Position numbers and translations under genes: made by a program. A DNA stretch of 64,000 nucleotides from PVC group bacterium (GTDB lineage Bacteria; Omnitrophota; Gorgyraeia; B26-G9), in contig JAAEQR010000195.1 in the NCBI GenBank assembly GCA_024231215.1, positions 142,755-206,754 on the forward strand. Direction: 5' to 3'. How positions within the stretch are numbered: position 1 is the stretch's first letter; every line of letters starts with the position of its first letter. Under the pieces are notes generated by a model. The model was given only the letters and a program-made list of their open reading frames with translations, had not been told where the DNA came from and did no database searches. This document shows, piece after piece, positions 4,351-52,186 of the stretch.

Positions 4351-4713
4351 ATGAGTGAACATAAATTGAATGAAGATACTTTAAAGATCATAAAAGAAAT
4401 AGAGTCTTGCTCAACTCTCAACCAACGTTTTCTGTCTACGAAACTTGGCATATCATTAGGTAAAACCAATTACCTATTAAAAGAACTTATCAAAAAGGGT
4501 TTAGTCAAAATCCATAATTTTTCTCATGGTAAAAATAAAATCATCAAAGTAGGATATAGTCTTACTCCAAAAGGAATAGAAGAAAGACTGCGTCTTACAT
4601 ATCACTTTCTAAAGAGAAAAGAATTAGAGTATGACCAGCTTAAAAAAGAATGGGAAGATATGACTAAAGGGGTTCAAATTTATCAGGAAAATAAAGAAGC
4701 TGTAGAGTTGTGA
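4351..4713 (+). CDS. MarR-family winged-helix regulator of the EPS-associated subtype (first gene of the glycan locus)
   Basis: 120 aa: LNQRFLSTKLGISLGKTNYLLKELIKKGLVKIHNF...YSLTPKGIEE. Size and wHTH pattern match the MarR-type regulators found at the head of exopolysaccharide loci. Confidence 0.65.
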   Translation: MSEHKLNEDTLKIIKEIESCSTLNQRFLSTKLGISLGKTNYLLKELIKKGLVKIHNFSHGKNKIIKVGYSLTPKGIEERLRLTYHFLKRKELEYDQLKKEWEDMTKGVQIYQENKEAVEL

Positions 4714-4734
4714 TGGTTAAGGGGGAGCTAAAAA

Positions 4735-5376
4735 ATGGAAAAACAGAACATAATCTTAGTTGGCGGCGGCGGACATTGCCGGGCTTGTATTGATGTTATT
4801 GAGGCGCAATTCAGATACAGAATTGTTGGGATAGTTGATGCCAAAGAAATGATGCATAAGAAGGTTTTAGGGTATGAAATCATTGGTTGCGAGCAGGATT
4901 TGCCGAAATTACTTGATGGTTGTGACAATTTTTTTATCACAGTCGGGCAGATTAAAACTGCCGATGTAAGGATAGAGAAGTTTGAATATTTGAAAAAATT
5001 AGGAGCGAAATTCCCGGTAATAATATCCCCTTCTGCCTATGTAGCTGATTCTGCTCGGATTAGTGAGGGGACAATAGTAATGCATGGTGCGGTTGTAAAT
5101 GCGCAGGCAGTGGTTGGGAAAAATTCCATTAGTAATACTGGAGCGATAATAGAACATGATGCAAGTATCGGTGATTATTGTCACATAGCAACCGGAGCAG
5201 TTGTGAATGGAGAATGTGTTATCGGAGAACGAGTGTTTATTGGGAGTAATAGTGTTATTTCAAATGGCGTTAATGTTGAGAGTAATGTTGTGATTGGTGC
5301 AGGTTCCACAGTTATTAAAAGCATTCTTGAGTCGGGAACATATGTGGGCAATCCAGCTAGAAAAGTGAATGGTTAA
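4735..5376 (+). CDS. NeuD/PglD-family sugar N-/O-acetyltransferase (N-terminal Rossmann-like domain plus left-handed beta-helix)
   Basis: MEKQNIILVGGGGHCRACIDVIE... N-terminal domain followed by hexapeptide repeats (IGDYCHIATGAVVNGECVIGERVFIGSNSVI). Confidence 0.75.
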   Translation: MEKQNIILVGGGGHCRACIDVIEAQFRYRIVGIVDAKEMMHKKVLGYEIIGCEQDLPKLLDGCDNFFITVGQIKTADVRIEKFEYLKKLGAKFPVIISPSAYVADSARISEGTIVMHGAVVNAQAVVGKNSISNTGAIIEHDASIGDYCHIATGAVVNGECVIGERVFIGSNSVISNGVNVESNVVIGAGSTVIKSILESGTYVGNPARKVNG

Positions 5377-5393
5377 TACTAAAGGAGTAAGCA

Positions 5394-6374
5394 ATGTTGA
5401 ATAAAAAAACAATTCTTATTACCGGAGGCACCGGATCTTTTGGGAAAAAGTGCACGGAAATCATCCTAAATAAATATAAGCCTAAAAAATTAATAATTTT
5501 CAGTCGTGATGAACTGAAACAATTTGAAATGGCTCAAATGTTTTCGGATAAAAAATATCCCTGCATGCGGTATTTTATCGGTGATGTGCGAGATAGTGAG
5601 CGTTTGTTAAGGGCTTTTAGCGGTGTTGATTATGTTATACATGCTGCAGCGCTTAAGCATGTTCCAGCTTGTGAATACAATCCCTTTGAAGCAGTAAAAA
5701 CCAATATTTTGGGAGCTGAGAACATAATTAATGCTGCGATTAATTGCGGTGTAAAAAAAGTTATTGCGTTAAGCACAGATAAGGCGGCTAATCCGGTGAA
5801 TTTATATGGTGCTAGTAAACTTTGTTCGGATAAGCTGTTCATTGCGGGTAATTCATACTCGGGACGGCATAAAGCGATTTTTAGTGTGGTTCGCTATGGC
5901 AATGTTATGGGTAGTCGCGGAAGTGTGATCCCATTTTTTTTAAAGCTGAAAAAAACAGGTACTCTCCCGATAACTGATCCTCGAATGACAAGATTTTGGA
6001 TTACCTTGGAACAGGGGGTTGTGTTTGTTCTTAACTGTTTTGACCAAATGGTCGGAGGAGAATTATTTGTTCCAAAAATTCCAAGCATGAATATTCTGGA
6101 TCTTGCCAAGGCTATTGCGCCAAAATGCAAGACAAAAATTGTGGGGATCAGGCCCGGGGAAAAACTGCATGAGATTATGGTCCCGAGAGATGAAGCAAGA
6201 ACAACACTGGAATATAAGGATCATTATATAATTCAGCCGGATTTGAGGTTTTTCTCAAATAGATTTAAAAAAAATAACGGCAAGCCGGTTGTTAATGATT
6301 TCGAGTACAATTCAAATACAAATAAATGGTGGCTTACAATAGATGAATTGAAAAGTATGGTGAGGAGTTTATGA
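5394..6374 (+). CDS. pseB: UDP-N-acetylglucosamine 4,6-dehydratase (inverting), PseB type
   Basis: [16 protein letters not shown]...YGASK... with the PseB/FlaA1-like short SDR architecture, 326 aa. Directly followed by the PseC-type aminotransferase. Confidence 0.85.
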
Positions 6375-51385: not shown

Positions 51386-51429
51386 TAGATTTTAGAATGT
51401 CTCGCATTTAGCGGGATTAATTCGCGCAA

Positions 51430-51463
51430 ATGATTTACGTCATAGAAATAATCCGTAAATCAT
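51430..51463 (+). terminator. Perfect 10-bp inverted repeat (ATGATTTACG...CGTAAATCAT) with a 14-nt spacer in the gap before the wzz-like gene; terminator/attenuator or palindromic operator
   Basis: Read from sequence. Flanked by GCGC on both sides (extends pairing). Followed by gcgcttatt and the RBS of the 51488 ORF. Confidence 0.35.
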
Positions 51464-51487
51464 GCGCTTATTAAGAAAGGGAAAAAC

Positions 51488-52186
51488 ATGGAAGAAAGAG
51501 AAATGCGAGACGAAGATGAGCTTAATCTATTGGATTTTTTCAGGGTGATATGGAAATATAAAATTCTGATCGTTCTTATCGTAATAGCAACTTGTACTAT
51601 ATCTTGGGTAAATAATATTAGGGCTCCGAAAATATATGAGTCTACAGCTACAGCTCTTCCTCCTGAAAGTGAAACTAAGTCCATGGGTTCATTGTCTCAA
51701 TTTACGCAAGGTGTTGTGGGTCAAATGCTTCCTAGCTTATCTTACGGGTCATCAACCAATATGGTTCTGGCCATGTTGAAGAGCCGGCGCATGGCTGAAG
51801 ATATTATTAAAAATTATGGTTTAAAAAAACGTTGGAAAGCTGAATTTCTTATTGATGCGATTGGAAGAATTAAAGGGAATACTCGTATTTCTGTATCAGA
51901 GGAAGGGGTTATTGCGATAGCCGTAGAATCAGAAGATTCTCAGCTTGCTGCTAATATCGCAAATTTTTATGTATCTAATCTTAATACAATGAATGAACAG
52001 CTCGAACTTAGTTCTTCAAAGCCGGTTGTAAGAAGTATTGATATAGCTAAACCAGCGGAGAAGAAATCAAAACCGGTAATCAGAAAGAACGTGATGATGG
52101 CTGGGCTGGGAGCTTTGTTATTGGGAATATTCCTGGCTTTTTTAAAAGAATATATTAATAGACATAAAGAAAAACTTAACGTATAA
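51488..52186 (+). CDS. Wzz-like polysaccharide chain-length determinant (short form, no tyrosine-kinase domain)
   Basis: LNLLDFFRVIWKYKILIVLIVIATCTI (N-terminal TM), periplasmic coiled region, C-terminal TM MMAGLGALLLGIFLAFLKEY. 232 aa. Confidence 0.65.
   Translation: MEEREMRDEDELNLLDFFRVIWKYKILIVLIVIATCTISWVNNIRAPKIYESTATALPPESETKSMGSLSQFTQGVVGQMLPSLSYGSSTNMVLAMLKSRRMAEDIIKNYGLKKRWKAEFLIDAIGRIKGNTRISVSEEGVIAIAVESEDSQLAANIANFYVSNLNTMNEQLELSSSKPVVRSIDIAKPAEKKSKPVIRKNVMMAGLGALLLGIFLAFLKEYINRHKEKLNV

Follow-up and report, generated by a model that had tools for sequence, protein, structure and literature searches.

The window analysed here, a stretch of 64,000 nucleotides from an uncultured PVC-group bacterium, contains between positions 4351 and 52186 a real, co-directional surface-polysaccharide gene cluster of about 48 kb, the left part of which carries genes matching the synthesis of pseudaminic acid (Pse), a nonulosonic acid. 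The open reading frame (ORF) listing gives 43 + strand ORFs of at least 80 residues in this interval which, with a carrier protein of 74 residues, make 44 genes; the locus genes described below are all on the + strand. An earlier note on this DNA had described some 48 kb with about 40 consecutive + strand genes in tight packing, and this was borne out: intergenic gaps are short, the widest (~220-270 nt) lying at 21.3, 32.4 and 45.2 kb. Each − strand ORF within the interval overlaps a + strand gene having a family match, and the guanine-cytosine (GC) skew is positive throughout. Families were assigned by Pfam and NCBIfam scans of the locus proteins, with equivalog cut-offs taken from NCBIfam; in what follows the cut-off is given in brackets with the score. 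Nearly all of the families named in the earlier note were recovered among the 44 products, namely two formyltransferase-fold proteins, WbqC, PIG-L, a class III aminotransferase, an aldo-keto reductase (AKR), three radical S-adenosylmethionine (SAM) enzymes (two SPASM-type, one B12-binding), FkbH with a PP-binding carrier, SAM methyltransferases including one TylC3-type C-methyltransferase, hexapeptide acyltransferases including NeuD, GT2 (four, one of them two-domain) and GT1 (one) glycosyltransferases, and an assembly and export set of a small Bac_transf phosphoglycosyltransferase, a PglF-like dehydratase, Wza with eight SLBB stretches and Wzz. The numbers differed slightly for two groups: for at least six methyltransferases, five SAM methyltransferases plus the B12 radical SAM enzyme were found, and for three hexapeptide acyltransferases, four when NeuD is counted. 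Wzi, a DUF218/ElyC gene, an HTH_24 regulator and a fusion of MaoC with a short-chain dehydrogenase/reductase (SDR) had been absent from the earlier list.

Three of the six canonical Pse enzymes (PseB, PseC and PseI) reach equivalog level. PseB, the inverting UDP-GlcNAc 4,6-dehydratase (5394-6374), scores 536.4 bits on TIGR03589 (cut-off 407.75); PseC, the aminotransferase giving UDP-4-amino-4,6-dideoxy-L-AltNAc (6371-7504), scores 479.7 bits on TIGR03588 (423.5); and PseI, the pseudaminic acid synthase with NeuB and SAF domains (14791-15864), scores 503.6 bits on TIGR03586 (340.25). A check for assignment to the legionaminic pathway, which had been proposed as a way to overturn the Pse call, left that call in place: the LegB model gives only 61 bits on PseB and the LegC model 248.6 bits (420) on PseC, far under the Pse models, and the NeuB model gives 350.7 bits (399.65) on PseI. 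By these model scores the core of the locus is of pseudaminic-acid type. A single in-frame ORF (10861-12654) joins a CTP_transf_3 cytidylyltransferase of SpsF/KdsB-like type to a PseG-like GT-B UDP-sugar hydrolase. Its first domain matches PF02348 (104.6 bits, cut-off 22.6) and scores 33.7 bits on the PseF model TIGR03584 (205.7); its second scores 125.2 bits on TIGR03590 (153.55), aligned over model positions 2-274 of 280, and carries a GLGHLSR motif, which we take to hold the catalytic His of PseG. The earlier assignment of the core was upheld at equivalog level for PseB, PseC and PseI, and had to be lowered to a sub-threshold PseG-like domain and a cytidylyltransferase that is not of PseF type. 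SpsF and SpsG work in a nonulosonic-acid (legionaminic) pathway in Bacillus subtilis (PMC7439481), and by analogy the SpsF-like domain is a plausible functional equivalent of PseF.

Comparison was made with loci L005 and L010 (ENA contig), L008 (395-kb contig of an Omnitrophota metagenome-assembled genome, MAG), L012 (Thermodesulfobacteriota MAG), L093 (10.7-kb contig from another metagenome sample) and a further relative on a 91-kb contig, among others. PseB is 92% identical to its homologue in L005 and 63% to that in L008. Cytidylyltransferase and PseG-like protein are separate genes in both of these loci; at the fusion junction (11560-11660) about 35 nt with the stop codon and spacer are missing relative to L005 (...EGKTSTN-MSNTVS...), and among the closest relatives compared the fusion appears peculiar to the window. 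The left block of the locus (5394-21307) is syntenic with L005/L010 at 70-92% amino acid identity for genes kept intact there, and at 79-92% from PseB to the radical SAM pair; L005 is a relative of 89% identity. L008 has the same order as the window block (PseB, PseC, formyltransferase, class III aminotransferase, AKR, cytidylyltransferase, PseG-like protein, WbqC, formyltransferase 2, PIG-L, NeuB, two radical SAM enzymes) at 37-76% amino acid identity, and rearranged versions of the module are present in L012 and in the 91-kb contig. The taxon-labelled closest relatives are Omnitrophota MAGs; a scan of genome contigs with the fusion protein returned one partial locus only. Judged by these gene orders, the extended Pse-type module is found again in a number of bacterial phyla that are uncultured and for the most part anaerobic.

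No GNAT family match was obtained among the 44 gene products, which confirms that the canonical GNAT PseH is missing. The NeuD/PglD-family hexapeptide N-acetyltransferase (4735-5376; TIGR03570 208 bits, cut-off 160.8; PglD_N and Hexapep) had been put forward as its substitute; a formyltransferase fits the role better. This protein, formyltransferase 1 (7534-8598), is PseJ/ArnA-like and matches PF00551 (33.7 bits, cut-off 26.1) and PF02911 (33.7 bits, cut-off 21.1), ArnA in the PDB (1e-10) and PseJ 6ci2 (1.4e-9 over ~100 residues). The Asn/His/Asp triad is kept in its motif FNLHGSRLPQYRG...VDTG, likewise in the L008 homologue. Here formyltransferase 1 stands directly before the class III aminotransferase; this slot is taken by a GNAT in L005, L012 and the 91-kb contig, and L005 also has PseC immediately ahead of it. 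L008 holds formyltransferase 1 and neither NeuD nor GNAT, and NeuD is not present in L005 either. On account of this slot swap, the kept triad, the content of L008 and the lack of NeuD in close relatives, formyltransferase 1 is ranked above NeuD as the probable acylator of the PseC amine and as a candidate replacement for PseH. The product would then carry a 7-N-formyl group, as in Pse5Ac7Fo, which is formed by PseJ (PMC11040635).

Three small genes follow the fusion. The first encodes a WbqC-family protein (PF08889; 12651-13346), a candidate ATP-dependent sugar-amine ligase with a predicted class I aminoacyl-tRNA-synthetase/BshC-like fold; it is a bare catalytic domain of 231 residues with 9% identity to BshC, and its invariant residues are Q7, P8, Y10, W13, G15, Y16, D24, D30 and H82. 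A PDB search gave no solved sequence homologue, and neither a characterisation of the WbqC family nor a link of WbqC with pseudaminic acid was found in the literature searched. The second, formyltransferase 2, is of the 1ZGH type (PF21553 60.7 bits; PDB 1ZGH 1e-63, a structural-genomics 'Met-tRNA formyltransferase') and spans 13375-14076, the start probably being 13375 and not that of the listed ORF (13294). In its motif CFHETEVPFGRG...LDAG a Cys replaces the catalytic Asn, here and in L008; it might, for instance, cap an amino acid attached to the sugar at its alpha-amine. The third is a PIG-L/LmbE-family de-N-acetylase (14073-14771; PF02585 87.2 bits, cut-off 28.2) with the motif AHPDDE in FFAHPDDETL at residues 12-21; its best NCBIfam matches are BshB2, BshB1 and MshB, all sub-cut-off (52.5 bits, cut-off 195). 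All three genes stand side by side in the window, L008 and the 91-kb contig, and PIG-L is nearby in six of nine other WbqC loci, some of which are near-duplicates. Strict co-variation of formyltransferase 1, formyltransferase 2 and PIG-L against GNAT was considered and rejected, the 91-kb contig having GNAT together with formyltransferase 2 and PIG-L. In bacillithiol and mycothiol synthesis a PIG-L enzyme deacetylates a GlcNAc residue, and a class I synthetase-like enzyme then adds cysteine to the amine. The BshC-like predicted fold of WbqC and the nearness of a BshB-like PIG-L suggest, by analogy, that a sugar amine is deacetylated by PIG-L and then re-acylated by WbqC. N-aminoacyl nonulosonic acids are known, a review of Escherichia coli O-antigens listing the alanyltransferase Lea3. 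Fragments of formyltransferase 2 (8676-9020; 63% over 115 residues) and PIG-L (9108-9341; 81% over 78 residues) lie between WbqC and NeuB in L005, where a GNAT fills the formyltransferase 1 slot; they look like accessory genes decaying after an acyltransferase swap.

Between formyltransferase 1 and the fusion lie a class III pyridoxal phosphate (PLP) enzyme, glutamate-semialdehyde-aminomutase-like (8624-9940; PF00202 142.5 bits), and the AKR (9959-10864; PF00248 86.7 bits). The former starts at 8624, not 8501, and its 438-residue product is identical to NCBI protein P0001. It has more than 8000 homologues, the best 120 of which are 68-100% identical and come, by MAG label, from Omnitrophota, Thermodesulfobacteriota, Elusimicrobiota, WS5, Chloroflexi and Proteobacteria. 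Its PDB matches are glutamate-semialdehyde aminomutase (5e-43) and a GenB-type C-6' aminotransferase (2e-39). The AKR is its constant neighbour, in L002, L005, L008, L012 and the 91-kb contig. In three homologues (P0096, P0101 and P0113; 690-702 residues) the class III enzyme is fused to a CTP_transf_3 cytidylyltransferase, which ties its function to the nucleotide-activation step; we can only say that it would use or produce an amine or a carbonyl linked to the CMP-sugar. A further homologue of 772 residues (P0112) contains PF14528, a LAGLIDADG-type homing endonuclease domain, which suggests an intein in a conserved enzyme.

PseI is followed by two tandem radical SAM/SPASM enzymes (15865-16869 and 16866-17879; PF04055 and PF13186 each), with CxxxCxxC and six to seven Cys in the C-terminal 100 residues. 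The pair, at 63-81% amino acid identity, is always directly after NeuB (L001, L005, L008, L012, L013, L016 and the 91-kb contig). Its PDB matches are weak (1e-10 or worse) and comprise MoaA, BlsE and the auxiliary-cluster domain of BtrN; oxygen-independent oxidation or epimerisation of a sugar would be our guess. The literature searched held no link between radical SAM enzymes and nonulosonic or pseudaminic acids, and nothing relevant on nonulosonic acid in Omnitrophota.

The next gene (17918-19747) encodes a soluble GT-B-fold protein of 609 residues from an unannotated family, with no Pfam or NCBIfam match even at E=5 and no hydrophobic segment. A profile search gave 489 members among 1.84 billion representatives, 100 of them at E<=1e-30. 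Gene neighbourhoods were compared in 54 metagenome loci, each 12 kb or longer, and nonulosonic-acid markers were counted in 41 loci with at least 8 kb upstream. Such markers were present in 37 of the 41 (cytidylyltransferase 35-37, PtmE-like 32, GFO 30, NeuC 20, NeuB 16), and in the cultured Rhodoferax lithotrophicus the GT-B gene stands beside a complete legionaminic/acetamidino set. The fold and this co-occurrence make the protein a candidate transferase, and the reading that needs the fewest assumptions is that its substrate would be a nonulosonic acid. Most GT-B loci are legionaminic-type; the pseudaminic-type module is the rarer partner (2-4 of 54 loci). A strict tie to NeuB was tried and dropped, as strict tblastn finds NeuB within 10 kb in 15 of the 54 loci only. 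The tightest partners of the GT-B gene, however, are the two acyltransferases, the epimerase and the GT2. The block closes with a Wzx-like flippase (19787-21307; PF01943 22.7 bits, cut-off 28.2) with 12 hydrophobic segments and 80-84% amino acid identity to L005/L010. In L002/L003 (20741-21317; Proteobacteria MAG) a 643-residue PF27878 (PFTS_polysacc) protein was seen after a nonulosonic-acid module with two NeuB and an ATP-grasp protein.

The centre of the locus (21.5-40 kb) is an expanded form of a compact cassette seen in the GT-B loci. After the GT-B gene, homologues of acyltransferase A were found in 51 of the 54 loci, of acyltransferase B in 39, of a GT2 in 43 and of the 378-residue epimerase in 38; in the window they lie scattered across 21-42 kb, separated by unique insertions. 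Hexapeptide acyltransferase A (Vat/CatB-like; 21525-22208), the homologue of which stands directly after the GT-B gene in those 51 loci, is followed by FkbH (22296-24077; TIGR01686 300.2 bits, cut-off 146.65), the 74-residue carrier protein (24090-24314; PP-binding 21.7 bits, cut-off 20.8; DSL serine motif), a methyltransferase (24345-25253) and the MaoC dehydratase-SDR fusion (25219-26706), the last two by Pfam/NCBIfam. This four-gene cassette occurs in none of the 54 loci, and the closest relatives hold a carbamoyltransferase in the slot. FkbH and the carrier protein suggest a glycerate-derived acyl group. Acyltransferase B (WbbJ-like; 26733-27326) precedes a block (27335-32438) of a methyltransferase (from 27335), the B12-binding radical SAM enzyme (28129), a GT2 (29600), a methyltransferase (30583) and an FkbM methyltransferase (31581); homologues of the B12 radical SAM enzyme in L012, L013, L016, L017 and L020 share 53-57% identity with it. 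The next block (32703-37728) comprises the two-domain GT2 (32703), the TylC3-type C-methyltransferase (34465), a GDP-mannose-dehydratase-like SDR (35733; 203.7 bits on the gmd model, cut-off 415) and a further GT2 (36682). For the genes at 30583-37728 no homologue was found in any locus compared. The C-methyltransferase and the dehydratase-like SDR suggest a branched 6-deoxy sugar, and the B12 radical SAM enzyme with four other methyltransferases suggests heavy methylation; the earlier prediction of non-acetyl N-acyl groups together with methylated and O-acetylated sugars was judged reasonable.

A Wzy-like polymerase (37750-39018; Wzy_C, PF04932, 17.1 bits, cut-off 31.7) has at least six hydrophobic segments, and its L093 homologue, 53% identical, is recorded as Wzy_C. 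It is followed by a GT1/GT4 glycosyltransferase (38918-40102; PF00534 58.8 bits), the true start of which is probably later, and by WbbJ-like acetyltransferase C, the 378-residue epimerase/dehydratase and a GT2 (40142-42825). The segment at 42867-47274 holds a DUF218/ElyC-like gene (42867), an SDR epimerase/reductase (43700; both by Pfam), the small Bac_transf phosphoglycosyltransferase (44647; PF02397 196.6 bits, cut-off 27) and the PglF/WbpM-like membrane 4,6-dehydratase (45448; by Pfam family). Export genes come last: a Wza-like outer-membrane polysaccharide export protein of 825 residues (47283; Poly_export 62.8 bits, SLBB and SLBB_2), Wzi (49841-51385; 225.8 bits) and a short Wzz (51488-52186; 43.2 bits, cut-off 25.5; 232 residues, two hydrophobic segments). 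Wza, Wzi, Wzz and the Bac_transf protein all score above their Pfam cut-offs. A metagenome scan with Wzi gave no matches. A trio of PglF/WbpM-like dehydratase, SDR and small phosphoglycosyltransferase stands for initiation on a 2-acetamido-2,6-dideoxyhexose, and by analogy the same initiation is suggested here. The locus has seven or more glycosyltransferase domains besides its one phosphoglycosyltransferase, and the repeat unit could thus reach about eight residues.

The locus lies among housekeeping genes, with dnaK, dnaJ and DUF1015 (2916-4178) upstream and an HD-domain gene, greA, a GT9 heptosyltransferase and uvrA downstream. Upstream of DUF1015 a zinc-ribbon ORF (2131-2490) overlaps the ORF of a VanZ-like membrane protein (2282-2836); the DUF1015 gene sits between these and a promoter-like TTGACA-16 nt-TATAAT on the + strand at 4315-4342, 9 nt before the first locus gene. 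This site matches at 12 of 12 positions and is the only such match within 2-22 kb; since the promoter-like total there equals the shuffle expectation, it is suggestive only. Promoter and terminator scans covered 2-22 kb and 40-58 kb, and terminator-like counts also equalled the shuffle expectation. The first locus gene encodes the HTH_24 winged-helix regulator (4351-4713; PF13412 36.4 bits), homologues of which adjoin Pse modules in L002 (35% amino acid identity) and L010 (42%); a protein further downstream in L010 (17194-17814) combines HTH_24/C2185-like_N with a Methyltransf_14 match. The HD-domain gene begins 12 nt past the Wzz stop and is followed by greA, behind which lies the first strong + strand hairpin after the locus (53338-53357; a perfect 8-bp all-GC stem followed by T-poor bases). 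Near the locus no terminator-like site is stronger than this one and a 13-bp hairpin with a T-run on the − strand (54604-54575), which follows ORF 54622-55011 of that strand. The GT9 heptosyltransferase (55121-56206), 3 kb past the locus with housekeeping genes between, indicates that the organism probably has a lipopolysaccharide (LPS)-type core. No tRNA genes and no Rfam families were found anywhere in the window, so an explanation by an integration site or a riboswitch does not apply.

GC content is 0.385 at 4351-17879, 0.337 at 21500-40100 and 0.385 at 42867-52186, with flanks at 0.387-0.389. The segment 40130-42847 has 89.2% DNA identity to L093 6877-9604, and the adjoining 37963-40137 only 71%; the cassette GT2 within 40142-42825 falls into the same 90%-identity cluster as a protein labelled as from an Alphaproteobacteria MAG. 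The highly similar block beside less similar neighbouring DNA points to a recent horizontal exchange of this cassette. For the Alphaproteobacteria label, mis-binning of that short (2.4-kb) contig is an alternative. Taken as a whole, the locus reads as a mosaic of cassettes, each occurring elsewhere. The earlier note had regarded the combination as an undescribed 'supercluster'. The PseB-to-Wzx block recurs in several phyla and the other cassettes are also seen elsewhere, and what stands of that claim is the uniqueness of the whole, which is trivial, as for any hypervariable glycan locus.

The reading that we consider rather probable is that of a single Wzx/Wzy-dependent O-antigen- or capsule-type locus with an embedded extended Pse-type pathway, built from cassettes. 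Several points weigh against it. The PseG-like and cytidylyltransferase domains are under their equivalog cut-offs; NeuD could equally acylate the PseC amine; formyltransferase 2, lacking the catalytic Asn, may not transfer formyl groups; WbqC occurs without PIG-L in L001, L005 and L012, so that deacetylation would not be its only amine source; no nucleotidyltransferase for the C-methyl sugar was found within the locus; the Wzx and Wzy calls come from sub-threshold matches; Wzz has no tyrosine-kinase domain, and no Wzc or Wzb was found in the window; and all substrate assignments and the chemistry are derived from sequence.

In the pathway proposed under this reading, PseB and PseC would form UDP-4-amino-4,6-dideoxy-L-AltNAc, and formyltransferase 1 would N-formylate the new amine, later N7 of the nonulosonic acid, in the stead of PseH. 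The PseG-like domain would take off UDP, PseI would condense the product with phosphoenolpyruvate, and the SpsF-like cytidylyltransferase would give the CMP-sugar. Following the logic of BshB and BshC, PIG-L would free the other amine and WbqC would re-acylate a sugar amine with ATP, probably with an amino acid; the re-acylated group may then be capped by the Met-tRNA-formyltransferase-like formyltransferase 2 or by NeuD. A further amination, epimerisation or redox change of the sugar may be due to the radical SAM/SPASM pair together with the AKR and the class III PLP enzyme, and the 609-residue GT-B protein would transfer the CMP-sugar. The low-GC centre would supply other sugars with O-acyl, O-methyl and C-methyl groups, an FkbH/carrier-derived glyceryl-type acyl group taking the place of the carbamoylation in relatives. 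That the 13-gene module makes an undescribed nonulosonic acid with all of these features, N-formylated, aminoacylated by WbqC, altered by the radical SAM, PLP and AKR enzymes and installed by a new GT-B family, can be put forward only tentatively.

The module may instead end in another stereoisomer or a further aminated nonulosonic acid (e.g. 5,7,8-triamino or epimerised) and not in a decorated Pse, a Pse-type intermediate being converted by both radical SAM/SPASM enzymes along with the AKR and the class III PLP enzyme. This we regard as rather unlikely, and it refines, and is compatible with, the single-locus reading. These four extra enzymes are kept at 56-89% amino acid identity across phyla, always with this PseI subtype; against their being one unit, the aminotransferase and AKR occur without the radical SAM pair in L002 and in Legionella. 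The resemblance of the PLP enzyme to GenB-type sugar C-6' aminotransferases/epimerases speaks for such a conversion, as do the aminotransferase-cytidylyltransferase fusions in some genomes, the presence of the aminotransferase, AKR, cytidylyltransferase and PseG-like set in the Legionella LPS locus also, and the alignment of the SPASM domain with BtrN, which oxidises a sugar alcohol anaerobically and so supplies an aminotransferase; the radical SAM structural matches, however, are all of the weak order given above, and the literature searched ties no such enzymes to nonulosonic acids.

Unlikely in our view, too, is that two or more glycan systems stand side by side, a nonulosonic-acid module (5.4-21.3 kb) serving O-glycosylation of a protein (S-layer, pilin or flagellin) or decoration of a lipo-oligosaccharide, and a separate Wzy-dependent locus for a capsule or O-antigen (~29-52 kb). 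The modules do differ in their relatives and in GC content (0.385, 0.337, 0.385), L010, the nearest relative, parts from the window directly after Wzx, and the right part is syntenic with L093, the 10.7 kb of which shows no nonulosonic-acid genes. In Kuenenia, also of the PVC group, modified nonulosonic acids sit on protein O-glycans (bioRxiv 10.64898/2026.04.20.719630). The 48 kb, however, hold only one flippase-like, one polymerase-like and one phosphoglycosyltransferase gene; no oligosaccharyltransferase, Maf/PseE or O-antigen ligase family was matched in library scans of the locus proteins; and no strong + strand terminator was found inside the locus in the parts scanned (2-22 and 40-58 kb). 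Moreover, in 51 of the 54 loci the GT-B gene leads straight on to those genes for acyltransferases, epimerase and GT2 which here are distributed over 21-42 kb.

That the 48-kb run is a chimera of assembly or binning, with joins where GC shifts at ~17-21 kb and 40-43 kb, is most improbable: the fall from 0.385 to 0.337 in the centre, the 89% DNA identity of 40130-42847 to a contig from another sample and the Alphaproteobacteria label of the GT2 cluster mate are the points in its favour, but ORFs run unbroken through both transitions, L005/L010 bridge 5.4-21.3 kb, L093 spans ~38-44.6 kb at 71-89% DNA identity and so argues against a join there, both flanks match the outer locus parts in GC, a low-GC centre is normal in O-antigen and capsule loci, and the window proteins have consecutive accessions on one public contig of 506,687 bp, with exact NCBI matches for MCP4650676 (DnaJ), MCP4650682 (PseB), MCP4650697 (FkbH), MCP4650711 (GY853_11620), MCP4650719 (Wza) and MCP4650720 (Wzi).

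If the module does make such an undescribed nonulosonic acid, the same chemistry would be widespread on the surfaces of uncultured anaerobes (Omnitrophota and Thermodesulfobacteriota and, by aminotransferase labels, Elusimicrobiota, Chloroflexota and others). Nonulosonic acids shape the recognition of bacterial surfaces by phages, immune systems and partner cells, and the enzymes adding non-acetyl groups to their nitrogens have been called 'largely unknown' (PMC11040635). The module offers a compact, testable gene set, with a candidate PseH-replacing formyltransferase, a deacetylase with a candidate ligase, and a radical SAM pair linked to a sugar synthase. The ligase idea would be the first functional lead for the WbqC family (PF08889), and the small GT-B family (~100 cluster representatives at E<=1e-30) tracks nonulosonic-acid genes. 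The module also links to the free-amine and N-formyl nonulosonic acids recently described in Kuenenia, another PVC bacterium.

Compared with the canonical Pse pathway of Campylobacter jejuni and Helicobacter pylori, the window shares PseB, PseC and PseI at equivalog level, a PseG-like protein with GxGH and a CTP_transf_3 cytidylyltransferase. It differs in having no GNAT PseH, in the sub-cut-off and fused state of the PseG-like and cytidylyltransferase domains, in eight further conserved genes in the module, and in the placing of the pathway in a Wzx/Wzy polysaccharide locus and not in a flagellin glycosylation island. With N-formylation by PseJ (PDB 6ci2; Pse7Fo derivatives of Pseudomonas aeruginosa; PMC11040635) it shares a triad formyltransferase, which here directly follows PseC; formyltransferase 1 is a distant relative with a C-terminal Fmt-type domain, and the window adds a second, non-canonical formyltransferase-fold protein. 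In contrast to the BshB/BshC and MshB/MshC pairs, the substrate here would be a nonulosonic acid or its hexose precursor in place of GlcN-malate or GlcN-inositol, nothing points to thiol chemistry, and the ligase role of WbqC is a predicted one.

Among nonulosonic-acid systems, the CMP-nonulosonic acids measured in Ca. Kuenenia stuttgartiensis are O-methylated and bear one N-formyl group beside one free amine; in the gene cluster, deacetylase and formyltransferase genes lie embedded between neuB and those for the dehydratase/aminotransferase (bioRxiv 10.64898/2026.04.20.719630). Both organisms belong to the PVC group and both sets include a deacetylase and a formyltransferase, a likeness drawn from the published description and not from sequence; the Kuenenia cluster, however, is described as legionaminic-type, with no mention of WbqC, a class III aminotransferase, an AKR or radical SAM enzymes. 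The LPS locus of Legionella pneumophila serogroups 6/12 combines an aryl-alcohol dehydrogenase/AKR and a cytidylyltransferase with a PseG-like protein and a class III aminotransferase resembling glutamate-semialdehyde aminomutase (PMC3694923); that locus differs in its ABC transporter (Wzm/Wzt) and acetamidino genes (HisH, HisF, WbuX-like), is without the radical SAM pair and lists no WbqC. The sps pathway of B. subtilis (PMC7439481) is alike, by description and not by sequence, in its CTP_transf_3 enzyme of neither NeuA nor PseF type and its PseG-like GT-B protein; it has Leg stereochemistry, serves the spore crust, and shows no fusion and no extra tailoring genes.

With Wzx/Wzy O-antigen and group-1-like capsule loci the window shares Wzx-like, Wzy-like, Wza, Wzi and Wzz proteins, a low-GC centre and cassette mosaicism; it differs from them in lacking Wzc/Wzb and in an unusually large tailoring set (five methyltransferases, the B12 radical SAM enzyme, FkbH with its carrier, four hexapeptide acyltransferases). 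The earlier statement that the tailoring goes far beyond textbook loci accordingly holds against Campylobacter, and less so against the Legionella LPS locus and the Kuenenia cluster. The locus is otherwise an ordinary mosaic hypervariable polysaccharide cluster, with an ordinary initiation and export end and of no remarkable size. What appears new is the extended Pse-type module, conserved across uncultured phyla and without a characterisation in the literature searched.

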